Assembly: GCA_963662405.2 (NCBI GenBank)
Contig: CAXXKT010000001.1
Span: forward strand, 672,001-736,000
Source of the DNA: Syntrophales bacterium
GTDB taxonomy: Bacteria; Desulfobacterota; Syntrophia; Syntrophales; UBA2210
Direction of reading: 5' to 3'
Length of the DNA stretch: 64,000 bases
Position numbers and translations under genes: made by a program. Within the stretch, counting starts at the first letter, position 1. Each line of letters starts with the position of its first letter. The notes beneath the pieces were generated by a model. It searched no databases. It was not told where the DNA came from and saw only the letters and a list, made by a program, of their open reading frames with translations. Below are positions 5,725-21,486 of the stretch, piece after piece.

Positions 5725-6660
5725 TCATATTGTGGCTTGTTCCGCTGTGCACGCGGGTTCTTCCGTTCCCATTTCGCATATAATGTGGCGAACCATTGAG
5801 GGATATACCTCTTGGAGGATATCAGGTGAGAGGAAGTATTCCTTGTGAAGCGCGAACGTATACTTGACCATCCGTTTGACCGTTTTTTCGACCGATCCCG
5901 CTCTGCGGTATACCGCCTTTATCATGGCGCAGAACTGATCTGACATCTGGATCGTTTTGGATATGAATTCGTTCGCCTCAGGACCGGTAATGTAGCCAAA
6001 GTGATCCGCGCACAGGTATTCAACATCCAAACGGCTTAATTTTCCGAGGCTTTTTTGAAACTCGGTGTAGTTCCAATTACCCGACGGGATAATCCCGTCC
6101 TTGAGAGGGATGCCCCCGCTGTCCGAGGGGAAGAGGGCCTTGATCTGGGGGATATAGGCGGATATGGAGCATTCGGAATGCCCCGGTGTCTCAAGGATCT
6201 CGACGTGAAATCCACCCAGATCGATGGAATCTCCTTCGAAAACGGTGATTCCATCGAGATCATTGCGCCAGAGCAGGTCGTACCGTGAAAGATCAAAGGG
6301 GGCGTTTGCCCTCTTCATTTCAATGGTATTGAACGAGTTGATTTCCTTGATTTTATCTGTGTCGTGAAGCACATCCCAGGCATGGCGTGAGGCGTAGACG
6401 GTCAGGTCTTCAAGACGTTTGCTGAACAGCGGAACGAGGCCGACATGGTCGAAGTGGCTATGGAGGATCAACAATTTTCGTATCTTGTTTACATCGATAG
6501 CGAATTCCCTGAGTTGATTCAGGACGTCGTAAGCGATACGACTCATGCCGCCGCTGATGATCATGGAACAGTCTGATCCCTCAACGAGATAGAGACCGGA
6601 TTCCTCCCGACCGAGGTACCACACGTGCTCACATATTTTTCCGGGGTTTCGGTGCCTCAT
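5725..6660 (-). CDS. MBL-fold metallo-hydrolase
   Basis: HSHFDH, TPGHS, SD and DH metal ligands. Start taken at MRHRNPGK (ATG 6660). Confidence 0.85.
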   Translation of the reverse strand: MRHRNPGKICEHVWYLGREESGLYLVEGSDCSMIISGGMSRIAYDVLNQLREFAIDVNKIRKLLILHSHFDHVGLVPLFSKRLEDLTVYASRHAWDVLHDTDKIKEINSFNTIEMKRANAPFDLSRYDLLWRNDLDGITVFEGDSIDLGGFHVEILETPGHSECSISAYIPQIKALFPSDSGGIPLKDGIIPSGNWNYTEFQKSLGKLSRLDVEYLCADHFGYITGPEANEFISKTIQMSDQFCAMIKAVYRRAGSVEKTVKRMVKYTFALHKEYFLSPDILQEVYPSMVRHIICEMGTEEPACTAEQATI

Positions 6661-6782
6661 ACGAATGTCTAAGTAGCTCCTTTCGGTTCTCTTATAATAG
6701 TTGTACCCTGCCAAAGATTGCTGTCCCGATCATGCCAACAATAAGGAAGATCTCTGCTCGTACACTGTGAGATGGGTACCTT

Positions 6783-8150
6783 TCAAGAGAGTTTTTTCCT
6801 TCGATAACGGAAGGTATGATGGTTTAAGTTGAGAAGCTTCGCCGCCTTGGATTCATTCCCCTTCGCGATACGTAATGCCTCGGAAATGTAGTAATCTTCC
6901 ACGGTGCTTTCAATCGAAGAAATATCGACCCCTTCCTCCGTCAAGGGCGGGAAAGAAAAATTCTTTGGGTCGAATGTTTCTGTTTCCACAATGCCGAGGT
7001 CATTTTTTTCTATGGATGGCTCTTGCGCTGTCAGGACGGCTCGTTCGATCATATTCTTGAGCTCTCTGATATTGCCGGTCCAGCGATGGGTTGCGAGTGC
7101 CTCAATCGCCCCATCTGAAAAGTTGGTGAATATTCTCCCGAATTTATCGGAAAAGTGAAGCAGAAAGTGGTGTGCGAGGGGAAGGATATCATCTGGACGG
7201 TCGTTCAGCGAAGGGATAGTCACGACAATGACGGCGAGGCGGAAGTACAGATCCTGGCGGAAGAGTTTGTTATCTATAAGGGTATGGAGATCTTTGTTGG
7301 TTGCGGAGACGACCCGTGTGTGCACCTGCAGCTTCGCGGTTCCCCCAACCCGATAGAACTCACCCTCTTCGAGGAAGCGAAGAAGTTTTGCCTGGGCTTC
7401 CATACTGAGGTCTCCCACTTCATCCAGGAAGAGGGTTCCTCCTCCTGCCGCCTCGATGAGGCCTTTCTTCCCGCTCGTGCTGGCACCACTGAAGGCGCCT
7501 TTCTCATATCCAAAGAGTTCGCTTTCTATCAGATCTTTCGGGATGGCCGCACAGTTGACCGTTATAAAAGGGCCCTTGAAGTTAGGACTTCTATGGTGAA
7601 TGGCGCTGGCGATCAGTTCTTTCCCGGTGCCGGTTTCACCGAGGATCAGTATCGGGGTGTCGGGGCTTTTTGCGACCATCCCGATAAACTTGAGCACATT
7701 ATGTATCTCATTGCTCTCGGCAACAAAACAGGGGATATTCTCTGCGAGATATTCTTCCTGGAGATCCTGGACTTCCTTGCGTAATCGAATCGTACTGAGT
7801 GCATTGCGAATGGTAATTTCAAGTCCATCCATGACGATGGGTTTGACGACATAATCATATGCGCCGAGCTTCATGGCGGAGATGACCGTTTGGATATCCT
7901 CGTACGCGGTGATCATAATCACCAGGATATCGTGACATTCCTTTCTGATATGGTGGAGGGCCTTGATACCGTCCATCCCGGGCAATCCAATGTCAAGGAG
8001 TATCAGGTCCGGAGGGTTTGATTGCATCGACTCGAGGGCGGATTCCGCTGTTGCGAAGGTATATATACGATATTCTGATTCAAGGGAAAAGCGGATACCG
8101 GTTCGTATTATTTCGTCGTCGTCGATGATGTATATGGAGTATTGTGTCAT
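6783..8150 (-). CDS. Sigma-54-dependent response regulator (REC-AAA+-HTH, NtrC family)
   Basis: IIDDD/LLDIGLP receiver, GETGTGKE Walker A, GAFSGA loop, LFLDE, GNIREL, C-terminal Fis-type HTH. Confidence 0.95.
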   Translation of the reverse strand: MTQYSIYIIDDDEIIRTGIRFSLESEYRIYTFATAESALESMQSNPPDLILLDIGLPGMDGIKALHHIRKECHDILVIMITAYEDIQTVISAMKLGAYDYVVKPIVMDGLEITIRNALSTIRLRKEVQDLQEEYLAENIPCFVAESNEIHNVLKFIGMVAKSPDTPILILGETGTGKELIASAIHHRSPNFKGPFITVNCAAIPKDLIESELFGYEKGAFSGASTSGKKGLIEAAGGGTLFLDEVGDLSMEAQAKLLRFLEEGEFYRVGGTAKLQVHTRVVSATNKDLHTLIDNKLFRQDLYFRLAVIVVTIPSLNDRPDDILPLAHHFLLHFSDKFGRIFTNFSDGAIEALATHRWTGNIRELKNMIERAVLTAQEPSIEKNDLGIVETETFDPKNFSFPPLTEEGVDISSIESTVEDYYISEALRIAKGNESKAAKLLNLNHHTFRYRRKKLS

Positions 8151-10207
8151 GCCGTTCGGTTCCCTTGTGTGATCGGAATCTGAAAGACAAATTCAGCCCC
8201 GCCCCACTTACTGTCATGAACCACGATTGAACCCCGATGATCGGTAACGATACGCTGGCATATGCTCAGTCCGATACCCGAACCGTCGTGTTTTGTTGTA
8301 TAAAATGGTTCGAAGATCTTGTCTCTCAGGTAATGGGGGATTCCGGGTCCCGAATCGGCGATCCTGGTAGCAATGATGCCGTTTTCACATGCCGTTGTGA
8401 TAGTGATTATTTTTTCTCCCTCTGAGTGGCTCATTGCTTCGGCGGCATTTGAAATGAGGTTTAAGATCAATTCCTCAATCAGTTGGGGGTTGAGCAGAAC
8501 GTCGGAGAGATTCCCATCGATATCCACCTCAAGTGCGATTTTACTTTTCCGCAGACTGACGGAAGAGAGTTCAACGGCATCCAGTATGGGCTTTTTTATA
8601 TTTCCTGCAATGAGTTTGTGCTCGGTCGGCTTGGAAAAATCCATAACCCGTTTGATAACGGATTCGATTTTTTTTGATGCGGAATGGATCTGCTTATAAA
8701 TTTCAGACGCATTTTCCGGAGGTCCACCTTGCTCATGGGATTTTTCAAGGAGATTCAGGTAGATGTTGATCCCCGAGAGAGGATTCCTTATTTCGTGGGC
8801 AATGCCGGCGGCCACCCGCCCCAGGGATGCCATCTTGTCCTGGATCCGCATGAGTTGGTCCACCTCCTTGCTTCTGGTGACGTCCATCATATTCAGCAGG
8901 AAGGCATCTTCCCCATCGTATTTGATCGATGTTCCATGACAGTGGACCCATCGGAAGTGTGATCCTGTATCGAGGGGAAGCAACCGAAATTCTATGTCTA
9001 TGGAGTCTGAGGCATTCGAAGCGATATCATGAAAAAGCTGTTGCACTCTATCGAGGTCCTCCGGATAAATCATTCTCAGATCGACGGGATGTATCTGCCG
9101 TTCTGGTTGCCCGAACAACCGTTGATGCTCGTGATTGCTATAGACAACGGTCTCGTCCTGGATGATGGAGATCCCTGTCGAGGCGTTTTCCGCGAGATCG
9201 CGGAATCGCTGTTCACTTTCGCGCAACCTGTCCTGGTAATTCTTATGCTCGATCAGCCGCAGCATCCCCTGCATAAGCAGCGTTAACTGCCTGACGTCCG
9301 ATTGATCATAATCTCCCTTCTTGTTCGCAACCCCTGCGATGGCATAAATCGTGTCATTGTTAAAGACAGGGATTCCCATATGCCGACTGAGTTTGACATG
9401 CCCCTTTGGATATCCTCTTTTAAAGTAATTCGGGGCGGTATAGTCGTTGGTGACGATGGGCCTGCGTTGCCGAATGGGCTCTCCCCATAATCCCATACTG
9501 TCAAGGTCAAAAATCCGGGATGGATTTTGAATTTTGGATGTCTTCGCCAAACAGGCGTACAGGGTAACCTTTTTCCCCTCTTCATCGACAAGGGCGATAT
9601 ACCCGTACCGGCTTTTCGTCAGTTTGATCCCTTCAGCGACGGCATAGTTGATGAGATCCTCGAGAGAAGCCCCGTCTGCCATCTGATTCAGTTTCAACTG
9701 TGTCTCAAGGCGCGCTTCGTCGAGGCGCAGGGCCTCTTCATTCTGTTTTCTTTCGGTGATATCAAGGTACGAGGCAATGCTTTGATTAGATCCGGCAATA
9801 ACGGCGACTGTTGCCATGATATCCTTGACATTTCCCTGCTTGTCTCTGAATTTGAATTCGTAGTTGCGTGGGACAAGTTGGGGGGCGATCCTCCGGACGG
9901 TGTGATATGCGATCATCGTATCCAGCATATCTTCATCCGCCACGAAGGTATTCCAGCTTATCTTTCCTTCCATCTCTTCCTTGGAGTAACCGGAGAGTTT
10001 TTCAAATTCACGGTTGGTTAAGGAGATGGTCATGTCGTTTTCCGAAATAATCATTGCCGTTCCGGTGTTTTCAAAAATGGTCCGGTACTTATACAGATCT
10101 GCGGTAGTGATATTCTGGTCCCTCAGCGTTTCCTCGTAGTTCAATCTCTGACGAAGTTTGTTGAGTTCACGAATCAATTGCCGTTTTGTTTTCTTTTCAT
10201 CTCTCAT
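8147..10207 (-). CDS. PAS-GAF-PAS sensor histidine kinase (cytoplasmic)
   Basis: AHEIRNPL H-box, NLISNA, DSGPGI, FEPFYTTK, GSGIGL. PAS and GAF (GHVKLSRHMGIP..VANK) domains; no TM segment. Start taken at MRDEKK. Confidence 0.93.
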   Translation of the reverse strand: MRDEKKTKRQLIRELNKLRQRLNYEETLRDQNITTADLYKYRTIFENTGTAMIISENDMTISLTNREFEKLSGYSKEEMEGKISWNTFVADEDMLDTMIAYHTVRRIAPQLVPRNYEFKFRDKQGNVKDIMATVAVIAGSNQSIASYLDITERKQNEEALRLDEARLETQLKLNQMADGASLEDLINYAVAEGIKLTKSRYGYIALVDEEGKKVTLYACLAKTSKIQNPSRIFDLDSMGLWGEPIRQRRPIVTNDYTAPNYFKRGYPKGHVKLSRHMGIPVFNNDTIYAIAGVANKKGDYDQSDVRQLTLLMQGMLRLIEHKNYQDRLRESEQRFRDLAENASTGISIIQDETVVYSNHEHQRLFGQPERQIHPVDLRMIYPEDLDRVQQLFHDIASNASDSIDIEFRLLPLDTGSHFRWVHCHGTSIKYDGEDAFLLNMMDVTRSKEVDQLMRIQDKMASLGRVAAGIAHEIRNPLSGINIYLNLLEKSHEQGGPPENASEIYKQIHSASKKIESVIKRVMDFSKPTEHKLIAGNIKKPILDAVELSSVSLRKSKIALEVDIDGNLSDVLLNPQLIEELILNLISNAAEAMSHSEGEKIITITTACENGIIATRIADSGPGIPHYLRDKIFEPFYTTKHDGSGIGLSICQRIVTDHRGSIVVHDSKWGGAEFVFQIPITQGNRTA

Positions 10208-10249
10208 CGTTTCAACTGCCTGATAGGTCGCGGTTACTGCGTTGCAGAA

Positions 10250-10265
10250 AGCAAGGAGCATGCCA
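10250..10265 (-). promoter_or_regulatory. Sigma-54 (-24/-12) promoter for the kinase/regulator genes
   Basis: Minus strand TGGCATGCTCCTTGCT is GG-N10-GC, ~43 bp upstream of the kinase ATG. Confidence 0.75.
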
Positions 10266-10526: not shown

Positions 10527-10542
10527 TGGCATAGCTTGTGCT
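10527..10542 (+). promoter_or_regulatory. Sigma-54 (-24/-12) promoter for the 10.6-19.5 kb operon
   Basis: TGGCATAGCTTGTGCT is GG-N10-GC. Confidence 0.7.
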
Positions 10543-10590
10543 CAGGGGGTGGGGAGAGCTTCTATTATTGCAAAAGGATCATCAGGCGAC

Positions 10591-10983
10591 GTGAATAACC
10601 CAACGGCCCTTCATGGAACAAGAATATTGCTTATCGATGATGACCAGTGGATCAGAGACTCCATGACTTTGTACTTTGAAGCGGAAGGATGTCATGTCCG
10701 ATCTTTTGCCACGGCTGAGGAAGGCCTGCCTGTCTTTCAGGACGATATGTGGGATGTGATCATAGTCGATTATCACCTGCCGGGTATGGATGGATTGATG
10801 ATGCTCGATCAGATTCAGAACCGCCAGGAAGGAGTCATAAAGGTCCTGATTACCGCGTATACAAGTGATACGGCTATTTCACGTGCCCGTGACGTCGGTG
10901 TCAACGCTTTTATCGAAAAACCATTTACGGCGGATGACATTGAGACGACGCTTGTGCGACTGCTTCACGAGCGAAGTGCCTGA
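10591..10983 (+). CDS. Single-domain response regulator (receiver)
   Basis: LLIDDD..IVDYHLPGMDG..ITAY..FIEKPF. Start taken at GTG 10591 because the ORF-track start at 10549 falls before the likely transcription start. Confidence 0.88.
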   Translation: MNNPTALHGTRILLIDDDQWIRDSMTLYFEAEGCHVRSFATAEEGLPVFQDDMWDVIIVDYHLPGMDGLMMLDQIQNRQEGVIKVLITAYTSDTAISRARDVGVNAFIEKPFTADDIETTLVRLLHERSA

Positions 10984-11060
10984 GAGGCGGGCGATGGATT
11001 GGTCCGGTAAGACTGTCCATGGTGCGTTGAACGAATATCATGTGATGAGAGGTAGAAACC

Positions 11061-12896
11061 ATGAATAGAAAATCTTATGTCAGATCTGTTCTTCTGATCG
11101 TAGCCGGCATACTGCTGAACCTGGGCATTACATATGTGATCGAATGCTTGGAGGGATCAGTGCCGTTCGATCATGTCGGGACTGTCTTTGTGGCAATCCT
11201 TGGCGGACCGATTGTGGGTGCTGTGGTGGGGCTGGTGAGTGTTCTGCTGTCTGCATTGCTGCAGTATGGGATTGGACTCATCGATGGGATGAACAGTGTC
11301 AACGGGGCCATATTGGGATGCCTTGTTGGCTGGCTGGCAGGACGCGGATTTTTCAAGGAATTTTGGAAAGCGATCGTCCTGGCCGTCGTGGCGGTGTTTG
11401 TGTATGCCTCCATTGTCATGCTCATTGTCACCTATGTCAGGATGACCGGATTCGGTGTGGGGTTCTGGTCCGGTATTGCCGAAGCATTCGCTTACCCCCT
11501 GGCGGTCATGAAAGATTTTATGGGGACCCTCTGGTTTGTCTTTCTCGATAAATTCTTCACCGTCCTGATCTTGTGGGCCTTTTTCAAACTGGTAGGGACG
11601 ATGCTTTTTCGGGGTGTGGCCCAAAATCCACCCACCCTTCCGGCAGCCATTAACACACAGAAGCTCGGAACAAAGCTTGCGGAAATCCCGATCGTGGGTC
11701 CTGTCTGGAAGAAGTTCGTACGTCTGGTCACTATCGTATATGTCGATTATGTTCCCCAATTTCAAAAAGGGAGCGAAACGGTAAAAACGCTCAAGACCTC
11801 GGAGGAGGAACAATACATGTTTAATCAGTACAGAGGATATGGTTTCAGATTACCGCAAAACATTTCGGAGTGGAACAAGGTCAAGGTGCAACTTGTTATC
11901 GGAACGATTCAGTTCGCCGGGGCGAATCATGATCTGCTCAATAAGGAGACAGTGGCACAACAGCTGAATCTCGGCATCGATGAAGTCACCAAGCGGATCG
12001 TCAGGATGTATAACGATCATCTTCTCTTGGTCCCCACCGATGCGGCGTTACAGACTGTTGGTTTTGCGCTGTTCTACATGGTGGTGAAACTGAAGAAGGG
12101 GACGTCTGACAAAAGGAAACAGGAAATATCAGCAATGATCCGCGACAACGATTATGCCTGCACCAGTTTTGAAACAGCGGGTGATTATGATTTCTTCCTG
12201 GGTGCTCATATTACGACCATTGATAACCTCTATAAAACTGTTTTGAAAGAGCTGTATGCCTTACCGGAGCTTGAGGAGCTGACACTGCTTCCGGTCCAGC
12301 GCATGTTGCGGCAGGAGCGTTTGAATCACTGGGATATGAAGACGGATCTGTGGCGGGAAGCGGCATTGATCGAGGGGGAATTGGATAAGCTGGCAGCGAT
12401 TCAGAGTGCACTGGACAAGACGGATCTCAAGATCCTTGAGGTGCTGATGAAGAAACGGGAGATCACCGAATATCTGAATGTCAATTTCCTGTCGAAGAAA
12501 AAAGAGGCAGGCGAGGCGATACTGCGGACACTTGATGAGAAGCGCCTTTTCGTATCACCGGTATTCCTGAATTGGATGAAGCTCAATTATAAGCCCTATT
12601 TCTTTGTCGTCAAATTCAATGAAAAGACCGACTGTGACAAAAAGATAGAACTATCGGACCATCTGGTTGAGACATATCCGGAGTTCAATCTCGCCCTTCA
12701 AGTGACTGATACTTACTATGATTTGTTCCTCGGGAGTTATCAAGGATTGGCGAATGTCGAGGCCGTGAAGAAGGCACTCAAAGAAACACCGGGAGTTGAA
12801 GATGTCAGAGAGATGGTTGCGACACGGCAGCATCGGATGTGGACGACCAAACTATCGGAAGAGAACTGGGGTGAATGCGTCATGATGTGGGAGTAG
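11061..12896 (+). CDS. ECF S-component-like membrane domain fused to tandem Lrp/AsnC-like (wHTH + ferredoxin-like) domains; function unknown
   Basis: N-terminal ~180 aa has ~5-6 hydrophobic segments with PFDHVGTVFVAILGGPIVGAVVG..FLDK. C-terminal part has VAQQLNLGIDEVTKRIVRM, FETAGDYDF and LDKTDLKILEVL, and is paralogous to 15956-17137. Confidence 0.6.
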   Translation: MNRKSYVRSVLLIVAGILLNLGITYVIECLEGSVPFDHVGTVFVAILGGPIVGAVVGLVSVLLSALLQYGIGLIDGMNSVNGAILGCLVGWLAGRGFFKEFWKAIVLAVVAVFVYASIVMLIVTYVRMTGFGVGFWSGIAEAFAYPLAVMKDFMGTLWFVFLDKFFTVLILWAFFKLVGTMLFRGVAQNPPTLPAAINTQKLGTKLAEIPIVGPVWKKFVRLVTIVYVDYVPQFQKGSETVKTLKTSEEEQYMFNQYRGYGFRLPQNISEWNKVKVQLVIGTIQFAGANHDLLNKETVAQQLNLGIDEVTKRIVRMYNDHLLLVPTDAALQTVGFALFYMVVKLKKGTSDKRKQEISAMIRDNDYACTSFETAGDYDFFLGAHITTIDNLYKTVLKELYALPELEELTLLPVQRMLRQERLNHWDMKTDLWREAALIEGELDKLAAIQSALDKTDLKILEVLMKKREITEYLNVNFLSKKKEAGEAILRTLDEKRLFVSPVFLNWMKLNYKPYFFVVKFNEKTDCDKKIELSDHLVETYPEFNLALQVTDTYYDLFLGSYQGLANVEAVKKALKETPGVEDVREMVATRQHRMWTTKLSEENWGECVMMWE

Positions 12897-12964
12897 CAAT
12901 CTCCTCGGCAGCGATGGCATATGAGCGTGGGTGGATGAGTAGTCGGTAGATTTGAGGTTGTAAA

Positions 12965-14191
12965 GTGACAAGCTTCAAGCAGTTTGCAGCACGACAGGCA
13001 TTAAAATTTTATCCTGATTTTCCGGAAGAATTTATAGAATACCTGGTTGAAAAACTTCGATGGGAAAGACTTGGATGGTTCCAGGGGAGAGTGATTATTA
13101 ATTCATATTTCCCTCCCATTCCCAGCAGGGCCGTGAATAGTGTCGTGAAGGCCTGGCGTTCAGGGATGAAGGGACGGGTTGTCCCCGAGGTAGCCACGGT
13201 AGCCGTGACCAATAAATGTCCTTATAACTGTCTGTATTGCAGCGTTCCTGACAAGACCGTCAGCGATATGTCTGCAGATCTTCTCAAACGTACGATCGGG
13301 CAGATCCAGGATATGGGAAGTTTCCATATCTCATTGACCGGCGGAGAACCGCTGTTACGCGATGATCTTGAAGATATTATCGCCTCCGTAGACGATCGCT
13401 CCGTGGTAAAGCTCTTTACGACAGGGTATTCTTTGACGAAAGAGCGGGCAAAGGCACTGAAAAAAGCGGGGCTCTTCTCGATCAACATCTCTCTCGACAG
13501 CGGTGATCAAGACATTCACGACCATGGGTGTGGATTTGATGGGGCATTCGATATCGCGTTGCGGGCGATCGAACATGCGAAACAGGCATCTCTCCTGACC
13601 TGCGTGGCGACTGTGGCGTCGCACAACGGTGTCTTGGGTGGAGAAATGAATCAGTTCTTGCGGTTTCTAAAAAAACAAGGTGTCGATGAGGTGTCGATAT
13701 TTGAACCGGCACCGACGGGGAAAATGTCGTTTCATGAGGAACTGCTCTTGAGTGATGACGAGCGAGAGGCATTGCACGATCTGCATAAGGAGATCAACGA
13801 AAGCGCGGACAAGAGATATCCGCGGGTCTTTTCATTCCCCTATGTGGAAGGCGCGGATTATATGGGATGTGGGGCCGGTTGCACACGGTTACATGTGACC
13901 GCACTGGGCCACGTGACGCCCTGTGATTTCACCTCGATTTCGTTCGGAAATATTCAACGAGAAAACATTGAAACGATATGGGACCGGATGAAGAGGTATT
14001 TCAATCAGCCGGACTGCGGTTGTTTTATATGCCATAATTTCAAGGAATTGAGAGGCATGTATGACGATCGGTCCGGTATGGCTGATGGTGATATGCTGGT
14101 AAAGAGAGGTAAGATGATGAAGGAAAGTCATCCACCGGCATTTTATAAATTGTTGATGGTGACGCAAGATACAAAACCAACGATATTTTAG
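12965..14191 (+). CDS. Radical SAM enzyme with SPASM/twitch C-terminus
   Basis: CPYNCLYC, TGGEPLLR, SLD; C-terminal CGAG..G.VTPC..GNI..C.CFIC. Confidence 0.92.
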   Translation: MTSFKQFAARQALKFYPDFPEEFIEYLVEKLRWERLGWFQGRVIINSYFPPIPSRAVNSVVKAWRSGMKGRVVPEVATVAVTNKCPYNCLYCSVPDKTVSDMSADLLKRTIGQIQDMGSFHISLTGGEPLLRDDLEDIIASVDDRSVVKLFTTGYSLTKERAKALKKAGLFSINISLDSGDQDIHDHGCGFDGAFDIALRAIEHAKQASLLTCVATVASHNGVLGGEMNQFLRFLKKQGVDEVSIFEPAPTGKMSFHEELLLSDDEREALHDLHKEINESADKRYPRVFSFPYVEGADYMGCGAGCTRLHVTALGHVTPCDFTSISFGNIQRENIETIWDRMKRYFNQPDCGCFICHNFKELRGMYDDRSGMADGDMLVKRGKMMKESHPPAFYKLLMVTQDTKPTIF

Positions 14192-14201
14192 GAGGAACGA
14201 C

Positions 14202-14450
14202 ATGTCGAATGAGAATGAGGGGAAAATTATAGCAATTATTGCCGAAGTGTTTGAAATGAGTAAGAAAGCAGTGACGAGAGACAAGGATTTCGTCAAGGAT
14301 TTCAAGGCAAAATCGATCAAAATCATAGAGATGTGTGCGATGCTCGAAGATGAGTTCGATATTGAGATCGATATGGAAGACGCGCGAAAAAATGCGACGG
14401 TTGGTGAAGCTATTGACTATACGCTGGAACTTATCGATGCGCAACAGTGA
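14202..14450 (+). CDS. Acyl carrier protein (atypical phosphopantetheine motif)
   Basis: 82 aa; FVKDFKAKSIKIIE..LEDEFDIEI..TVGEAIDY; RBS AGGAGG; acpS nearby. Confidence 0.85.
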   Translation: MSNENEGKIIAIIAEVFEMSKKAVTRDKDFVKDFKAKSIKIIEMCAMLEDEFDIEIDMEDARKNATVGEAIDYTLELIDAQQ

Positions 14451-14468
14451 TACGCGGTTGCTAAGGAG

Positions 14469-15482
14469 GTGACGCTCTTAATGGAGAAGAATAATACATT
14501 CATAGATGATTTGAAGGTTCGTGTCCAGGGAAAAGGAATACGGGTTGTGTTCCCTGAAGCCGAAGAACCTCGTATCCTGAAAGCCGCATCGATCGCACGG
14601 GCTCAAAATATCGCCATTCCCATACTGGTAGGAGATCCGCAAAAGGCACATGATATTGCAAAAGACCACGGCATCGATATTACCGGGATGGAGATCATTC
14701 TTCCCGAGGAATCCGTACAGTTTGATGCCTATGCGGAGACATATCGTGCATCAACGACACTCCGCGAGGGAGCTGTGAGAAGATTGTTAAAAAAACCGGT
14801 TTTCTACGCGGATATGATGGTGAAGGTGGGAGATGCGGATGCCATGGTCGGCGGTGCGGTGTACGAAACGGCGACCGTGATTATGGCGGGAACCATGGTA
14901 ATCGGGATGAAAGAGGGAGCATCCACTCCGTCGAGTTTCTTTGTCATGGATATCCCCGGATTTGAAGGAGGAGAGAACGGCAAACTCATATTCGCGGATT
15001 GTGCTGTGGTCCCGGACCCGAGTGCCGAGGAGTTGGCTGACATCGCCATAGCGAGTGCGGATAGTGCGAAAAAGCTCCTGGGTTGTGTTCCCCGGGTCGC
15101 CATGCTCTCGTTTTCGACGAAGGGGAGCAGCCTGGAGCCCCCGGTTGAAAAGGTTATTCGTGCAACGGAAATAATCAAGGAACGGAGGTCGGATATATTG
15201 GTGGACGGGGAATTACAGGTAGATACCGCCATTGTTCCCGCGATCGCTCAGAAAAAGATCAAGGGGAAAAGCCCCGTTGCCGGTCAGGCCAACGTACTGA
15301 TCTTCCCGGATTTGAACTCGGGGAACATCGGGTACAAACTGGTCCAGCGCCTGGCGGGGGCCGACGCGATCGGTCCTCTCTTGCAGGGATTTGCGAAACC
15401 GGTGTGTGATCTGTCCCGCGGTGCAACCGTGGAGGATATCATTGGTTCGATCGTAATGACGGCGATACAGGCGATCGATTAG
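14469..15482 (+). CDS. pta: Phosphate acetyltransferase / phosphotransacylase
   Basis: VFPEAEEPR, FADCAV, AMLSFSTKGS, DGELQ.D, GNIGYKLVQRL, DLSRG. Confidence 0.92.
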   Translation: MTLLMEKNNTFIDDLKVRVQGKGIRVVFPEAEEPRILKAASIARAQNIAIPILVGDPQKAHDIAKDHGIDITGMEIILPEESVQFDAYAETYRASTTLREGAVRRLLKKPVFYADMMVKVGDADAMVGGAVYETATVIMAGTMVIGMKEGASTPSSFFVMDIPGFEGGENGKLIFADCAVVPDPSAEELADIAIASADSAKKLLGCVPRVAMLSFSTKGSSLEPPVEKVIRATEIIKERRSDILVDGELQVDTAIVPAIAQKKIKGKSPVAGQANVLIFPDLNSGNIGYKLVQRLAGADAIGPLLQGFAKPVCDLSRGATVEDIIGSIVMTAIQAID

Positions 15483-15492
15483 GTTCAGGAAG

Positions 15493-15882
15493 GTGAATCC
15501 CGTGATTTATGGTGTTGGGATCGATATCGAAAAAAAAGATCGTTTGCGAAAGGCATTGGAGCTCAATGAGCGGGCGTTTCTGAAGTATGTGTTCGCCCCG
15601 CAGGAGGTGTCCTATGCACGGAGGCAGGAGGATCTGGTGTCGCATCTGACGGCTATTTTTTCTGCGAAAGAAGCGGTTCTCAAGACCGTGGGTACCGGTT
15701 GGAAAGGCGGGGTCAGGTTGACCGATATTGAGATCTGCCATGATTCTCATGGGAAGCCGGAGGTCGTCTTGTCCGGGAATCTTCAAAGGATAGCTGCCTC
15801 ACGTCATATCACGACAATCATGGTGTCGCTTTCTTATGAGGATACCTATGCGGTTTCTTACGCCGTCGCCCTGACCGGGTAA
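15493..15882 (+). CDS. acpS: Holo-ACP synthase
   Basis: GVGIDI, FSAKEAVLK.VGTG, GKPEV, VSLSYE..YAVS. Confidence 0.9.
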   Translation: MNPVIYGVGIDIEKKDRLRKALELNERAFLKYVFAPQEVSYARRQEDLVSHLTAIFSAKEAVLKTVGTGWKGGVRLTDIEICHDSHGKPEVVLSGNLQRIAASRHITTIMVSLSYEDTYAVSYAVALTG

Positions 15883-15955
15883 GAGCATGTAGCAATAGAG
15901 GGTAGGGAACGTGAAACAAAAGATAAACAAAACGACTGTAAGAGAGGAGAGTCAC

Positions 15956-17137
15956 ATGGGAAAGATTCAAAAAAGATTTGGGTTGCTGTTTGCATTGATT
16001 GTTGCGTGTGTCTTTTTAGTGAGTGTCTCGGTTGTCGGCGCGGAAGATAAGTATTACTGGCCGCCTGAGAGAGGCTACCATAAGCTTTTACCGTTTGCGA
16101 AAGAGTATCTGAAGAAGGAAAACACATCGGGCTATGCATTGGCCAAGGCAACGAGAACGGCGGATATCGTCAACCTCGACTATGTGACGCAAAAGGTAGG
16201 GATCAGCAAGAAAGAGGCGGCAAAACGAATTAACAGAATGTTCGACGAGCACCTCATTCGACTGACGGCGGATTCTCCCATCGATAATCGAGGATTCGGA
16301 CTTTATTATACCGCTATAAAGCTGAAACCCGAAGCAACCCCGGAACAGAAGGCGAAACTATCCGAGATTATGCAGAATGAAGATCATGTCTGCACCGGGT
16401 ACGAGGTGGAAGGTGACTTTGACTTTGTTCCGGCGTTCCATGTGACGACACTGGAGGTGTCCGAAAAATATGTCAGGTCCTATTTCGAAAAGTCAGGTGT
16501 CCTTGAGTCGTATCAGTTGCTTCCCATTCAGAGAATTCTCCGTCAGGAACGTATTAATCATTGGGGTGCTCCGATTTCGATGTGGAATGAGGTCGTATAT
16601 GCCCCCAACGAATTCGAAAAACTTGCCAAGATCCAGGACAAACTGGATATAACGGACCTGAAGATCATAGAGGCGATGCAGGAAAAACGAGCGGCAAAGG
16701 ATTTTTACAACTGGGATTTTGTTGCCAAGAAGACCGGTCTCAAAAAAGACGGCCTGATCAATGGACTTGAGCACGCCTGGGCTGAGCGGATGTTTGTGCT
16801 GCCGGTTTTTATGAACTGGATGAAATTAGGGTACACGAATCACATCTTCTTCGTCAAGATGAGCAGGAAGCTGACCTCGGATGAGAAACTCGCAATCGGT
16901 GACAAATTTGCTGAAAATCCTTCATTTAATCTGGTTTTCCAGTTCAACGACTGTGAGTTCACCTATGCCCTTGGCGCCTGGACAAAACTGACCGACATCG
17001 ATGCCCTCAGAGATGCAATCAAGGGTGTCAGTGGTGTAGAGGGAATCAAGGAAGTCAACCTGACCAGACAGTGGAGGCAGTGGACGTGCCGCCTGGATGA
17101 TGACAACTGGGATAACTGCAAGTATTGCGTCGATTAA
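15956..17137 (+). CDS. Signal-peptide-bearing tandem Lrp/AsnC-like protein; function unknown
   Basis: MGKIQKRFGLLFALIVACVFLVSVSVVGA/EDK is a Sec-like leader. Body has KVGISKKEAAKRINRM, YEVEGDFDF and LDITDLKIIEAM. Shares LP.QR.LRQER.NHW, PVF.NWMKL.Y and RQ.R.WT..L...NW with 11061-12896. Confidence 0.6.
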   Translation: MGKIQKRFGLLFALIVACVFLVSVSVVGAEDKYYWPPERGYHKLLPFAKEYLKKENTSGYALAKATRTADIVNLDYVTQKVGISKKEAAKRINRMFDEHLIRLTADSPIDNRGFGLYYTAIKLKPEATPEQKAKLSEIMQNEDHVCTGYEVEGDFDFVPAFHVTTLEVSEKYVRSYFEKSGVLESYQLLPIQRILRQERINHWGAPISMWNEVVYAPNEFEKLAKIQDKLDITDLKIIEAMQEKRAAKDFYNWDFVAKKTGLKKDGLINGLEHAWAERMFVLPVFMNWMKLGYTNHIFFVKMSRKLTSDEKLAIGDKFAENPSFNLVFQFNDCEFTYALGAWTKLTDIDALRDAIKGVSGVEGIKEVNLTRQWRQWTCRLDDDNWDNCKYCVD

Positions 17138-17150
17138 TGAGTCCTCTATC

Positions 17151-17187
17151 GAAGTGGGTGAGGGATGTGTGTCCCCTCGCCCACTTC
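17151..17187 (+). other. Strong intergenic hairpin without U-tract (mRNA stability/processing element?)
   Basis: GAAGTGGGTGAGGGA..TCCCCTCGCCCACTTC inverted repeat. Confidence 0.5.
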
Positions 17188-17238
17188 ACCCCCTGCAGTA
17201 TGAAAGAAATTCGAATTAGTTGGTAAGGAGTTTGTAAT

Positions 17239-18459
17239 ATGAATATCCTGACGTTTAACTGCGGAAGCTCATCGCTGACGTACAAGATATTTCGAGCCGG
17301 GTCCGATGACGATATAGAGATCGCCGTATCCGGAAAGGCTCACCGTGTCGGTGTTACCGGAAGTGAACCATCTTTCATTGAACACAACTATAACGGACAA
17401 TATGAAAAAAATACACTGCCCATAGCGAGTCATCGGGAAGCCGCGGCGCTTGTATTTCAATATGTAAAAAAAAACGGCATACCCATTGACCTTATCGGTC
17501 ACCGGTTTGTTCATGGTGCAACATATTTCCCGAGGACCGCGATCATTACGGATGAAGCGTTAGAGACGCTTGAAATTTGCCTTCCTTTTGCCCCCCTGCA
17601 CAATCCTATCTCCATGAGTGTCATTAAAGAGTCACGCGCGACGCTCCCTTCGGTGAAGGAATATATTACATTTGACGGGGCATTTCATTCAACCATACCG
17701 GATTATGCCTATACCTATGCGCTACCGGATGAGGTTATCGAACAATATGGATACCGGAAATACGGTTTTCACGGTTTATCCTTCCAGTATGTCAGTGGGG
17801 AATCGGCACGATTTCTGAACGTCCCGCTGGAAGAGTTGAAGTTGGTGATGTGTCATCTCGGTACCGGGGGATCAAGCGTCTGTGCCGTAAAAGACGGTTA
17901 TTCCATAGACAATTCTCTCGGATACACGCCTCTCCCGGGGCTCATCATGAGTACCAGATCGGGTGACATCGATCCAATGGCCGTCATCTTTCTGATGAAC
18001 AACTATGGATATACCCCGGATAACCTGGAGGCCCTTTTGAACAAAAAGGGGGGAATCTTGGGAATATCAGGATTCTCGAGTGATCCGCGCGATATTATCG
18101 AAGCGATCAAGACGGATGAGACAAAACGGGATATCGCACAGCTCGCCCTTGATATGTATGTACAACGGCTGAAAAAATATATCGGCGCCTATATTGCGGT
18201 CATGGGGGGGATTGATGCACTGGTATTTACCGATGATGTCGGGGTCCTGAGCGCGGTGATACGGGAAGAGGTGTGCAAGAGCATGGGCTGGTGCGGAGTT
18301 GAGCTTGATTATGATCTCAATCGAACCGTCGACCCGAAACAGGATTCCATCGTGAGTACGGAGCAATCAAAGGTATACGTCATGACGGTTCCCACAGCCG
18401 AAGAACTGGTTATCTGCCGGGAGGGCCTGAAACTACAAAGAGAAGGAGAAGCAGCATGA
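17239..18459 (+). CDS. ackA: Acetate kinase family protein with Entamoeba-type (PPi-dependent) signatures
   Basis: NCGSSSLTYK, GHRFVHG, APLHNP, KYGFHGLS, HLGTGGSS, TRSGDIDP, FTDDVG, TAEEL. Confidence 0.9.
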   Translation: MNILTFNCGSSSLTYKIFRAGSDDDIEIAVSGKAHRVGVTGSEPSFIEHNYNGQYEKNTLPIASHREAAALVFQYVKKNGIPIDLIGHRFVHGATYFPRTAIITDEALETLEICLPFAPLHNPISMSVIKESRATLPSVKEYITFDGAFHSTIPDYAYTYALPDEVIEQYGYRKYGFHGLSFQYVSGESARFLNVPLEELKLVMCHLGTGGSSVCAVKDGYSIDNSLGYTPLPGLIMSTRSGDIDPMAVIFLMNNYGYTPDNLEALLNKKGGILGISGFSSDPRDIIEAIKTDETKRDIAQLALDMYVQRLKKYIGAYIAVMGGIDALVFTDDVGVLSAVIREEVCKSMGWCGVELDYDLNRTVDPKQDSIVSTEQSKVYVMTVPTAEELVICREGLKLQREGEAA

Positions 18460-19499
18460 TTGTAATTTTTGATCCTCAGCCGCCTTTCATCCGATGGTAC
18501 AAAATGACAGAGAGCGGCTTCACAGAGAAGCAGTGTATATATCAGAACGGTTGGGAAAAAGAAGTCTCGGCTGATCTCGAAGGGATCACCGGTGCCGCCT
18601 ATGTCTTGTATAACGGGGGCGATGAAATCGTCACATCACCGGTCACTATTGATCGGAGTCTTATGGCAACAGTTGAAAAGACTGTTCCCTTGTCACCTGA
18701 GCGTAATAAGATGACCCTTGAGGCAATTCGTTACTGCTATGAACAGATGCCCGGAATTCGGCATACCATTGTCTGTGAAACGGCATTGTATGGTGCCCTC
18801 CCGCCAAAATCCCGAAATTATGCAGTCCCCCTGGAACTCAGAGAGAAGGGAATAAAGCGCTACGGTGGATATGGGCTGGAACATGGATACATGGTGGAAA
18901 AGGTAAAACCGGTATTAGGAGATGCGCATCATAAGGTGATCAGTGTCTTCCTGGGGCCTGAAACCAATGTGACGGCCTTTGAAGATGGCTGTCCATTGGA
19001 GACATCAATCGGTTTTAGTACTGCGGAGGGGATCCCTTCCCTCCATGGTTGCGGTGATACCGACGCCTCGTTTGTCTTTCTGATGCAGGAGGCCGGTTGG
19101 GCACTCAAGGATATCGCCCCGGTTTTTTCTCAAAAAGGTGGACTCTGTGCGTTGATGGGAAAAGAAGATAGTACCTTAGGCGATATCCTCCATGCCGGAG
19201 TAGACACTATCGCCTACAAGGTGCTCCGATATTCCGTAATAAAATATATGGGAAATGCTGTCGCGCAACTGAGAGGGGCTGATGCCTTTCTCATACACGG
19301 CGAGAATCCGATTAAAACGGTGGGGCCGTTTATTCGGGATGTATGCCGGAATTTTGAGTTCATCGGCCTGACCTGTGCAGAGACAGATGAAGAATTGCCG
19401 GGAGGTTTGTTCATTCTTTCCGGGAAAGAATCATCGATAAAGGTGTTGTATGTCCAGTGCGCCAGGCCCGAACTGCTCGGAACATGCGTCAATCAGTAG
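18456..19499 (+). CDS. Degenerate acetate kinase-like protein (catalytic motifs lost)
   Basis: Colinear with AckA but YVLYNGG replaces HRVVHGG, CETALY replaces FDTAFH, KRYGGYGLEH replaces RYGFHGxSH, and FLGPET replaces HLGNG. ATGA overlap with ackA. Confidence 0.75.
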   Translation: MIVIFDPQPPFIRWYKMTESGFTEKQCIYQNGWEKEVSADLEGITGAAYVLYNGGDEIVTSPVTIDRSLMATVEKTVPLSPERNKMTLEAIRYCYEQMPGIRHTIVCETALYGALPPKSRNYAVPLELREKGIKRYGGYGLEHGYMVEKVKPVLGDAHHKVISVFLGPETNVTAFEDGCPLETSIGFSTAEGIPSLHGCGDTDASFVFLMQEAGWALKDIAPVFSQKGGLCALMGKEDSTLGDILHAGVDTIAYKVLRYSVIKYMGNAVAQLRGADAFLIHGENPIKTVGPFIRDVCRNFEFIGLTCAETDEELPGGLFILSGKESSIKVLYVQCARPELLGTCVNQ

Positions 19500-20612: not shown

Positions 20613-20673
20613 TGCTAATATGCTTTTCAGCAGTCGCGGTTTTTTCTGGTCCGCTGTAAAAGTCTTGTTAGGC
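20613..20673 (-). mobile_element. Integron attC-like recombination site (R' degenerate)
   Basis: Minus strand GCCTAAC-AAGAC-TTTTACAGCGG..CTGCTGAAAAG-CAT-ATTAGCA; 61-bp imperfect hairpin whose R'' overlaps the stop codon of the DUF2971 gene. Confidence 0.7.
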
Positions 20674-21486
20674 TATTTTGCTACATTCAATTTCGTATCG
20701 TGTTTTTGAAATAGATATGCCATAAACCTCAGCATCCAGTCCATTTTTATGCACTATGTCTATTACTTCTGATTCTAAATTTGGAGCAGCATGCGCACCA
20801 ATATAAATACTTTTAATGCTGTCTTTGGGAATATCGAACAGATAAATTGGATACCCTGATTCATCTACGTTTGGCGACCTTTTAGTGCGTTCAGTAAAAA
20901 TCCTGAGCACCCTTACTTCTTCTTCATACGCCCAGTCGATTGGTTTTTCACACAACAACTTCTCATAGTAATCAAAGTCTTGCAGGGTAGGAGCGCTACG
21001 TTGCTTGGTATATCTTACTTGGCTTGGGCATGTTCCAAGGCCAAGATATGATTTTTGATAAAAGAATTCATGTGATTCATCGAAACCAATCACAAAACCT
21101 TTGTGGCGATCGGCATAATGAGTCCACATCAATAAATTACTAAATGTTCTTGAAAGAGAAAGTATACCGATCCTTTTATTTAACCAATCCATCAGTTCAC
21201 GTCCCACATTTGATGAGGACATTTTTTCAAGGAGATGAGATTTTAATGATCGAACTTCTTCATCCAATATTTTACAGTTCTCTGATGTTTTTTCTTCACC
21301 TACCGTGTTTTCACACAAATCAAATCTGTAACGTTCTATTTGATCCATTAAATCACTAATACTAGAACTCATGTCTATCAAAGGTGACCCCTCAAAAGGA
21401 TCATTTAATGCTCTAGGCTGGGAAAATCGAATCTCTAAATTCTTCAGAACTTGGACTCTATTTGGAGGTAAGTATTTATAAAACAT
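20668..21486 (-). CDS. DUF2971 domain protein (gene-cassette cargo)
   Basis: YKY..LNDPFE, LSLS...NLLMWTHYADRHKGFVIGFD, K...WAYEEEVR, IYIG. Markedly AT-rich relative to flanks. Confidence 0.85.
   Translation of the reverse strand: MFYKYLPPNRVQVLKNLEIRFSQPRALNDPFEGSPLIDMSSSISDLMDQIERYRFDLCENTVGEEKTSENCKILDEEVRSLKSHLLEKMSSSNVGRELMDWLNKRIGILSLSRTFSNLLMWTHYADRHKGFVIGFDESHEFFYQKSYLGLGTCPSQVRYTKQRSAPTLQDFDYYEKLLCEKPIDWAYEEEVRVLRIFTERTKRSPNVDESGYPIYLFDIPKDSIKSIYIGAHAAPNLESEVIDIVHKNGLDAEVYGISISKTRYEIECSKIA

Follow-up and report, generated by a model that had tools for sequence, protein, structure and literature searches.

A conserved cassette of tandem Lrp-fold proteins, a radical SAM enzyme, and a noncanonical acyl carrier module in a Syntrophales bacterium

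We analyzed a gene cassette of a Syntrophales bacterium (assembly GCA_963662405.2, contig CAXXKT010000001.1) that lies within a 64-kb stretch of DNA, hereafter the window, to which all coordinates without a locus name refer. We consider its nine genes to form one cassette behind a conserved sigma-54 site, their co-transcription being putative. The cassette encodes a receiver protein, two tandem Lrp-fold proteins, a radical S-adenosylmethionine (SAM) enzyme, an acyl carrier protein (ACP), a phosphotransacylase (Pta), a phosphopantetheinyl transferase (AcpS), and two acetate kinase homologues. It is a real, conserved system without known family membership, for which we propose a mechanism. The best overall explanation is that it may operate as a coenzyme A (CoA)-free acyl-transfer line on a private carrier protein, a reading to which we assign a probability of about 0.45. 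An original prediction made from the window had held that no described pathway combines these genes, and a full-text literature search, most subscription journals being outside its reach, found none. The genes of the cassette are as follows.

10591-10983, plus strand: stand-alone receiver protein; start refined from 10549; accessory
11061-12896, plus strand: energy-coupling factor (ECF) S-component of RibU fold fused to a tandem-Lrp/NirDL-fold domain; Cys/His pair; deletion in the second helix-turn-helix (HTH)
12965-14191, plus strand: radical SAM enzyme with an N-terminal extension; CxxxCxxC at residues 85-92; Cys 302, 320, and 353
14202-14450, plus strand: noncanonical ACP; AKSIK replaces ADSLD, with the Ser retained
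14481-15482, plus strand: Pta; Ser-Arg-Asp retained, CoA-site arginines lost, KKxKG insertion; ORF listed from 14469
15502-15882, plus strand: dedicated AcpS-type phosphopantetheinyl transferase without the equivalents of Arg53 and His103; ORF listed from 15493
15956-17137, plus strand: exported (signal-peptide) tandem-Lrp/NirDL-fold protein; start ATG at 15956; Cys146 and His162 retained
17239-18459, plus strand: AckA1, acetate kinase with a putative pyrophosphate (PPi)-dependent signature; extra Gly in PHOSPHATE2, Asp-Asp in ADENOSINE
18456-19499, plus strand: AckA2, conserved acetate-kinase-fold pseudoenzyme; catalytic motifs lost

Ten genes had been predicted; nine open reading frames (ORFs) were counted on the plus strand between 10527 and 19499. 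Their common orientation and order, from the receiver through the degenerate ackA, were confirmed by Pfam and NCBIfam identities (receiver; ECF-S-like N-terminus with a faint AsnC match; Radical_SAM plus SPASM; PP-binding; PTA_PTB; ACPS), the exported protein matching no family. The Acetate_kinase scores were 393 bits for AckA1 and 114 bits for AckA2. After start refinement, the genes are separated by gaps of 10 to 101 bp and one 4-bp overlap, as short as had been described.

The cassette recurs in bacteria and in an archaeal-looking contig

Co-occurrence of the genes in other genomes had been set beforehand as a test of the prediction, and it was observed both among Syntrophales-type bacteria and on an archaeal-looking contig. 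The 39 loci retrieved by a motif scan included 11 true relatives (3 of 13 genome loci and 8 of 26 metagenome loci); the other 28 were discarded as chance matches. Since the identities of L047 are those of L018, there were 10 distinct relatives; L072 was added afterwards. The ECF S-component-Lrp fusion, the radical SAM enzyme, ACP, Pta, and a kinase were found together in 7 of these 10 (L018, L019, L020, L034, L035, L039, and L052). In the 1.1-kb stretch L036, an Lrp-fold gene adjoins an acpS gene of the cassette type. The archaeal-looking contig, L052, has a GC content of 34%, contains a Trm1 fragment and a DUF116 gene, and carries ACP, ackA, and pta in inverted order; its fusion protein agrees at 605 of 606 positions with a protein named as that of a Thermococci archaeon.

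Within the order, the tandem-Lrp family profile matched 5 of 339 genomes, including the source genome, whereas none of the 7 further genomes from its genus was matched; three of the four matches in other genomes were stretches already counted. The cassette is thus conserved yet patchy, a distribution resembling that of a mobile unit. With the exported protein as single query, a locus search gave no match, a first phylum sample of 401 genomes contained no true relative apart from the source genome, the ESM Atlas returned hypothetical or generic clusters only, and plasmid searches yielded nothing relevant. A Pta pattern scan, which skipped GTG-Val codons, gave three loci, two known already and L059.

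Common extras in the relatives are a second exported Lrp-fold type, a free S-component (7 loci), and an AhpD/CMD-like protein (4 loci). In L018, the exported gene of the window type is cut to 107 amino acids and overlaps ackA1 (L018:11201-11524), and the second exported type lies downstream; the two types appear interchangeable. The AhpD/CMD-like protein has a CxxC motif and a hydrophobic C-terminus and flanks the cassettes at L019:318-944, L020:2326-2949, L034:8177-8782, and L052:5679-6281; it is absent from the window block, and a 40% relative is encoded elsewhere in the genome. A divergent FolE2-fold protein without GTHMSR, likewise absent from the window block, is always encoded directly 3' of ackA2 (L034:7308-8084, L039:19430-20026, and L072:7345-7854).

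ACP, AcpS, and Pta carry matching residue changes and recur as a module

The original prediction had proposed a dedicated carrier set, and residue changes together with module recurrence indicate that ACP, AcpS, and Pta appear co-adapted and distinct from the housekeeping set. The cassette ACP scores above the PF00550 cutoff, has the four-helix PP-binding domain, and retains the attachment Ser in 8 of 8 sequences. Asp35 is replaced by Lys in all 8 and Asp38 by Lys or Gln, and the protein hence lacks the residues of a fatty acid synthase (FAS)-type ACP that are read by Arg14 of AcpS, according to the available part of PMC3447402. That part also names the catalytic residues Asp8, Glu58, and Lys62 of AcpS, and Arg53 and His103 as ligands of the CoA 3'-phosphate. 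In the alignment, the cassette AcpS retains the catalytic set; Arg53 and His103 are replaced in 7 of 7 cassette sequences and are both present in the housekeeping AcpS. The cassette Pta keeps Ser309, Arg310, and Asp316, with DLSRG..D in all cassette sequences. Its CoA site 2 is lost: the Arg87 loop is replaced and Arg133 is Met in 7 of 7; a basic KKxKG insertion is gained. We refer to these forms as cassette-type AcpS and cassette-type Pta.

As a control for Pta, we used every match found in the order (20 of 339 genomes) together with the best ones from a sample of the phylum (13 of 256 genomes). Seven long Ptas have lost Arg133 alone, a change too common to serve as a marker. The full residue pattern occurred in 9 genomes, namely, five cassettes and four others. 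The ACP profile detected an ACP no more than 1.5 kb away from 6 of the 9 genome-derived cassette-type Ptas and from none of the 23 other Ptas; among the remaining three cassette-type Ptas, two have an ACP 3.5 to 4 kb away and one lies at a contig end. One of the 23 other Ptas (L145) has a Q-S ACP just outside the 1.5-kb limit, beside an HMGL-like enzyme. This locus, L160:350-3318, encodes a Q-S ACP (AQS), the HMGL-like enzyme, which is presumably Re-citrate-synthase-like, and an intermediate Pta that retains an Arg in the Arg87 region.

At these loci, all four noncassette genomes encode a K-S ACP, a cassette-type AcpS, and a kinase of the acetate or butyrate type, with no Lrp-fold or radical SAM gene; the partner is a CocE/NonD hydrolase in L139, L154, and L155 and an HSL esterase in L140. 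These modules of AcpS, Pta, kinase, and K-S ACP span L139:11023-18209, L154:8432-13204, L155:8714-15586, and L140:1925-6321. Lys precedes the ACP Ser in 4 of 4, AcpS lacks His103 in 4 of 4 and Arg53 in 3 of 4, and the nucleophile Ser motif is present in all four hydrolases. In L139, L154, and L155, the modules are surrounded by transporter and dehydrogenase genes; L139 also has a thiolase, and L155 a CoA-transferase. A further set was observed in a Clostridia genome (L161:710-4160), in which a thiolase, ChsH2/DUF35, a K-S ACP with Lys likewise before the Ser, a cassette-type Pta, and a cassette-type AcpS lie together; this genome also has a tandem-Lrp operon of the Firmicutes kind described below. 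In a midpoint-rooted Pta tree of 35 sequences, from which L161 was excluded, the 12 cassette (8 sequences) and hydrolase-module (4 loci) Ptas were set apart from the rest by one branch (94/91), as sister groups; none of these 12 has the Arg87 loop or Arg133, and each keeps Ser-Arg-Asp.

Because the module recurs beside hydrolases or a thiolase without Lrp-fold or radical SAM genes, ACP, AcpS, Pta, and kinase form a portable unit. CocE/NonD, HSL, and thiolase-type enzymes all form acyl-enzymes, and the enzymes swapped in beside the carrier module are mostly acyl-enzyme formers. We regard the ACP as the probable substrate of the cassette-type Pta. The idea of a self-contained single pathway was not upheld, as the carrier module occurs with other partners and tandem-Lrp proteins occur with a different acyl-phosphate enzyme.

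Outside the cassette, the source genome encodes a fab-cluster ACP, another AcpS, and the genes ahbA and ahbB; the cassette pta and ackA genes are the sole homologues found in it. A second genomic ACP (G000:C1:1134916-1135164), from a FabA/FabB-like cluster, has a VNSAR motif, so that the cassette is not alone in having a non-D-S ACP. The genome further contains approximately 18 ADP-forming acyl-CoA synthetase-like and 38 sigma-54 activator-like matches.

The tandem-Lrp proteins resemble enzymes more than regulators

The tandem-Lrp family is rare. A single-query search gave 11 matches at 90% clustering, and 30 representatives (E up to 1e-30), many of them fragments, were found among 1.8 billion sequences. 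The two copies in the window are 35% identical. The predicted model (pLDDT 83) has a paired Lrp fold with NirDL as its best fold match (E 4e-10, Z 13.1), and the family profile is nearest to Lrp/AsnC regulators (E 1e-6). Cys146 and His162 were each present in 26 of 28 sequences, at positions that are not conserved in weakly related tandem-Lrp regulators. The HTH is not intact: its recognition helix carries Glu or Asp in 26 of 28 sequences, where 80 of 111 tandem-regulator helices have Thr, Ala, or Ser, and a deletion affects the second HTH in the S-component fusion. Acidic recognition helices, the NirDL fold match, and the conserved Cys/His pair support the earlier proposal that these Lrp-like proteins are enzymes and not regulators. 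Labels as siroheme decarboxylase and as plain regulator were rejected on motifs (HxYxR and linker His for the former, recognition helix for the latter). From the Lrp topology, Cys146 and His162 should face the same barrel cleft as is used by AhbB, and we lean towards the tandem-Lrp protein being an acyl-enzyme former.

The N-terminus of the fusion is a six-helix, RibU-like S-component (TM-score 0.67-0.69 on target), in agreement with the predicted ECF-S assignment, its Pfam score lying under the cutoff. Given this RibU fold, the Lrp part of the fusion is probably cytoplasmic. No ecfT or ecfA gene was found in the block, to which this search was confined. The exported forms have Sec-type signals, and that of L052 has a lipoprotein signal and a Thr-rich linker.

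In Firmicutes, a gene for a cytoplasmic tandem-Lrp protein is immediately followed by one for the alpha subunit of an ADP-forming acyl-CoA synthetase in 7 of 9 loci (one broken, one at a contig end), and 4 of 9 have a sigma-54 activator upstream with a matching site. The phospho-His of the alpha subunit is retained. In 4 of 5 Firmicutes genomes, no strong match to a beta subunit was obtained, and in 5 of 5 none to the cassette radical SAM enzyme. A lone alpha subunit can exchange acyl-CoA and acyl-phosphate, the same job as that of Pta. The family is therefore found beside a thioester/acyl-phosphate converter in two unrelated ways, with the cassette-type Pta in the cassette and the alpha subunit in Firmicutes. 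This two-gene operon, with its highly conserved alpha subunit, was observed in L005 (9944-12583), L006, L007, L008, L009, L012, and L013 and is the simplest system for testing the family.

The window kinase has a putative PPi-type signature and is paired with a pseudokinase

The best solved relative of AckA1 is 4H0O, the Entamoeba PPi-dependent acetate kinase (PPi-ACK). The PPi-type signature was present in 4 of 4 AckA1 sequences, which lack the ATP-type Gly331 in ADENOSINE and the short PHOSPHATE2 loop. As far as the available part of PMC5517563 goes, the same signature is listed for putative bacterial PPi-ACKs, the phosphoryl donor being left open by its authors, and the kcat of the Entamoeba enzyme is 266 per s in the direction of acetate but 1.4 per s in that of acetyl phosphate. 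AckA1 probably makes PPi. Syntrophus aciditrophicus keeps high PPi and makes ATP from PPi, as stated in the accessible portion of PMC4992975, and a PPi-making kinase would for this reason be useful in this group.

As predicted, the second ackA is degenerate. Five catalytic motifs of acetate kinases, visible in the AckA1 alignments to solved relatives (NxGSSS, GHR, GFHG, TRxGD, and PTxEE), are all lost in 4 of 4 AckA2 sequences, making it a pseudokinase. The AckA1/AckA2 pair was found in the window, L018, L034, L039, and L072. We rejected it as a common independent module in the order, as it occurred in 3 of 339 genomes, all of them cassette carriers; elsewhere the AckA2 family is wider (76 matches).

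The radical SAM enzymes form a tight cassette branch (48 to 82% identity) of a wide uncharacterized family (1,149 matches, E up to 1e-40), with three conserved C-terminal, twitch-like Cys residues (302, 320, and 353). Equivalogs of AhbC, AhbD, NirJ, PqqE, and MoaA were rejected, the scores being below the NCBIfam cutoffs (best 109 bits versus 325; AhbD 103 versus 500), as was the Mss label (PMC13159169 and PMC13459092), since V[TML]PCDF stands in place of the VEPC motif. Twelve loci of distant relatives, covering up to ~6 kb on each side and less at contig ends, contained no ACP, Pta, Ack, or tandem-Lrp gene. With mixed neighbors and no cassette partners, these relatives do not name the reaction. 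The closest noncassette relative in the phylum sample (L107:11-2472) is encoded directly upstream of a queE-like radical SAM gene and queC.

Promoter, composition, and neighboring genes

The elements around and between the cassette genes are the following.

5725-6714, minus strand: metallo-beta-lactamase-fold hydrolase behind the regulator pair, which it accompanies in L018 and L039; accessory
6783-8150, minus strand: divergent NtrC-type sigma-54 activator (REC-AAA-HTH); accessory
8147-10261, minus strand: divergent soluble PAS-GAF-PAS histidine kinase; accessory
10527-10542, plus strand: sigma-54 -24/-12 promoter element
17151-17186, plus strand: 14-bp RNA hairpin without U tract between the exported gene and ackA1 (z -4.0)

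The predicted GG-N10-GC promoter is present and matches 9 of 12 positions of the consensus. Sites scoring at least 9/12 number 926 in 7.59 Mb (both strands), about 1 per 8 kb, and the chance expectation of such a site in the 360-bp spacer is ~0.04. The site is retained in the relatives with divergent kinase and activator genes (L018, 9/12; L039, 11/12). In sequence terms, the -24/-12 site and the nearby enhancer-binding protein are those of a sigma-54 operon, and the divergent NtrC-type protein is the likely activator of its promoter. The listed receiver start, GTG 10549, is upstream of the expected sigma-54 start site, which makes GTG 10591 the most likely start. Receiver, kinase, and activator were found in L018 and L039 only and are absent, with upstream DNA present, from five relatives (L019, L020, L029, L034, and L052). 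Sigma-54 control is therefore outside the core definition, and the earlier inclusion of this control and of the receiver in the system had to be dropped.

The block had been described as richer in AT than its flanks, which is correct but mild: its GC content is 49.0% and that of the genome 53.6%, and values this low occur in 12.6% of the 9-kb segments of the genome (13th percentile). The GC content at third codon positions (GC3) is 0.49 to 0.59 in the cassette and 0.73 to 0.83 in four flanking genes. The low-GC block extends over the divergent kinase, activator, and metallo-beta-lactamase genes. At its right edge lies a DUF2971 gene (20668-21486, minus strand) that, with its GC3 of 0.29, is much more foreign than the cassette, from which glyoxalase-fold and PGPGW genes separate it. 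A 1,428-amino-acid protein with two BcrAD_BadFG domains and a DUF2229 domain (419-4705, plus strand), an architecture that we take to be that of PlsA/Ger ether-lipid enzymes, is probably unrelated to the cassette because its GC3 is host-like. A 2,077-amino-acid ORF (36136-42369, plus strand) is located in a region that is rich in GC, strongly skewed, and also contains long antisense ORFs.

Proposed mechanism and its alternatives

In the mechanism that we propose, AcpS would attach the pantetheine arm to the K-S ACP, and the S-component would import a small substrate to its own membrane-tethered tandem-Lrp domain. This domain would cleave an acyl bond (ester, amide, or aryl-ketone C-C) via a Cys146/His162 acyl-enzyme, and the acyl group would pass from the enzyme Cys to the ACP thiol. 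Pta would convert acyl-ACP and phosphate to acyl-phosphate, from which the kinase would free the acid and conserve the energy, in the form of ATP in most relatives and probably of PPi in the window. AckA2 would be a partner subunit of AckA1, the exported paralogue would capture or preprocess the same substrate outside, and the radical SAM enzyme would make one C-H-activating change on the substrate or the ACP-bound acyl group; the roles given to these three proteins are weak assignments. The original prediction had the acid loaded onto the ACP, which is unproven. AckA1 resembles an acetate-forming enzyme, and the sister modules sit in catabolic clusters, for which reasons unloading is at least as likely as loading. 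We narrowly prefer the catabolic direction, in which acyl unloading would yield energy.

We regard as doubtful, taken as a whole, a more far-reaching version of this mechanism. The tandem-Lrp proteins would be a second Cys-based enzyme family derived from a transcription-factor fold, working on both sides of the membrane, and the S-component fusion would couple import to catalysis. The K-S ACP, whose priming might draw on dephospho-CoA or an analogue of CoA, would be an orthogonal "protein coenzyme A" conserving ester, amide, or C-C bond energy, here as PPi via a first bacterial PPi-ACK with a pseudokinase subunit.

Several observations weigh against a CoA-free line. The cassette AcpS retains Arg14 (6 of 7) though its ACP partners Asp35 and Asp38 are gone, and Arg53 is also missing from the phosphopantetheinyl transferase of yeast FAS. 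Pta may still use CoA, because Arg87 and Arg133 of CoA site 2 merely tune the Km (PMC6461089, available part) and Arg133 loss occurs without an ACP: the seven long Ptas that lost Arg133 alone keep Arg87 and have no ACP nearby. The canonical Pta loci with which the ACP linkage was compared covered 1.5 kb on each side only. The Lrp G-x-x-D ligand loop (G153 and D156) is present in 28 of 28 tandem-Lrp sequences and would suit a binding protein equally, the adjacency of Cys146 and His162 is inferred from Lrp topology, and an exported copy is unable to meet ACP or acyl-phosphate. Among the relatives, L035 has no acpS within the block, and L029 and L030, both near contig ends, have fused and exported Lrp-fold genes and a free S-component with radical SAM and ACP genes nonadjacent.

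Other points concern the direction of flow. The cassette has no redox or downstream catabolic genes, and SAM is spent at each turnover of a radical SAM enzyme in its core, which fits biosynthesis better than energy harvest and makes the opposite flow a serious rival, although one that we consider less probable than the proposed mechanism. Kinase and Pta would then load a short acid on the ACP, the radical SAM enzyme would modify it, and the membrane tandem-Lrp protein would transfer it to an acceptor, giving an exported product (signal, cofactor, or lipid) bound by the exported paralogue. The ordinary ATP kinase of six relatives, which is canonical and bidirectional, fits this flow, as do the related Pta and AQS-type ACP beside an HMGL-like synthase/lyase in L160 and the lipid-type neighbors of some distant radical SAM relatives. 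The high PPi of S. aciditrophicus could also push a PPi kinase towards acyl-phosphate (PMC4992975, in the part available). On the other hand, the closest sister modules are paired with hydrolases in catabolic clusters, the enzyme on which the PPi-type kinase is modeled strongly favors acid formation, and the minimal Firmicutes version has no kinase, ACP, or radical SAM gene nearby, the last not being found in any of the five genomes.

Three further readings agree less well with the data. That the tandem-Lrp proteins are ligand sensors, outside and membrane-tethered inside, with ACP, Pta, kinase, and pseudokinase reading acyl-phosphate status in a block devoted mainly to signaling, would agree with their closeness in sequence to Lrp/AsnC regulators, the G-x-x-D loop, the receiver and pseudokinase, and exported forms with signal peptides or lipoprotein anchors and Thr-rich linkers, like solute-binding proteins. 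We consider it improbable: the recognition helices are acidic, the fusion carries a deletion in its second HTH, Lrp-type binding does not require the Cys/His pair that is specific to the family, and five relatives lack the receiver and two-component pair. Salvage of a tetrapyrrole or cofactor, in which NirDL/AhbAB-like decarboxylases and an AhbC/D/NirJ-like radical SAM enzyme remodel an imported porphyrinoid, could account for the NirDL fold match, for AhbD and NirJ2 among the top subthreshold NCBIfam matches of the radical SAM enzyme, and for the alignment of His162 with the His of the AhbB FTMIH motif. It is very unlikely, given that neither half has HxYxR, an aromatic residue takes the place of the AhbB/NirDL linker His, the radical SAM scores are ~100 bits versus cutoffs of 500, the genome has separate ahbA and ahbB genes, and ACP, Pta, and kinase would be left without a role. 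Least likely of all is an ordinary CoA-dependent Pta-Ack pair placed by chance on a mobile island with unrelated ACP, radical SAM, and Lrp genes; this would suit the sole pta and ackA homologues of the genome and the patchy (0 of 7 same-genus genomes), AT-shifted block, but the linkage of ACP to pta and the matching residue changes are maintained in bacteria, in an archaeal-looking contig where the gene order is inverted, and with at least three other partner types.

Comparison with known systems

The cassette shares with the Pta-AckA pair (Methanosarcina thermophila Pta 1QZT and Ack 1G99) both enzyme families, the Ser-Arg-Asp set of Pta, and an acyl-phosphate intermediate. It differs in that its Pta lacks the CoA-site arginines and travels with a noncanonical ACP and AcpS, and in that the window kinase is of the PPi type and has a pseudokinase partner. 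PlsX and protein C of glycine reductase also turn a protein-bound acyl thioester into acyl-phosphate, and glycine reductase feeds acetate kinase. Unlike these, the cassette enzyme scores as PTA_PTB and passes the NCBIfam pta cutoff, with no PlsX model matched, and no PlsY, FAS, or Grd genes were found in the block. Citrate lyase and malonate decarboxylase use a private carrier with its own priming enzyme for one catabolic reaction. Their carriers bear a ribosyl-dephospho-CoA arm made with CitX/G or MdcB/G; the cassette has a FAS-type ACP, AcpS, and a phosphotransacylase instead.

With NirDL and AhbAB (PDB 4CZC, 4CH7, and 4CZD), the tandem-Lrp proteins share two fused Lrp units as enzyme scaffold and non-DNA-binding helices. 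In siroheme decarboxylase, the HxYxR motif and the linker His are essential; the cassette proteins, 14 to 16% identical, have neither and instead have the Cys/His pair and exported and S-component-fused forms. Lrp/AsnC regulators (PH1519, ST1022, and AsnC) have the same HTH and RAM fold and G-x-x-D loop, whereas the cassette proteins are tandem, have an acidic recognition helix, lack one HTH in the fusion, and include exported copies. AckA1 shares the extra Gly, the Asp-Asp, and Phe at the Val93 position with 4H0O and with putative Anaerolineaceae PPi-ACKs (PMC5517563, in its available part). Unlike the Entamoeba enzyme, it is a putative, bacterial PPi-ACK and is paired with a conserved pseudokinase inside an ACP cassette. 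The Mss lipid synthase is likewise a radical SAM enzyme of anaerobes with overlapping hosts (Sarcina and Clostridium are among the homologue names in the part of PMC13159169 available); the cassette enzyme, compared by motif, lacks the block-V VEPC motif given there.

Implications

The presence of a FAS-type ACP and AcpS in an archaeal-looking contig is unusual in itself. If the proposed mechanism is true, "pta-ack" annotations can mislead, and the cassette would provide testable first examples of a Cys-based Lrp-fold enzyme family with exported members, of an S-component-enzyme fusion, and of a bacterial PPi-type acetate kinase. The orthogonal ACP/AcpS/Pta set would be a useful tool for acyl loading without adenylation enzymes. 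The organisms concerned could then phosphorylate at the substrate level, or activate acids, on a protein carrier reserved for this purpose and kept apart from the CoA pool, which would be a new energy-conservation design for life near the thermodynamic limit.

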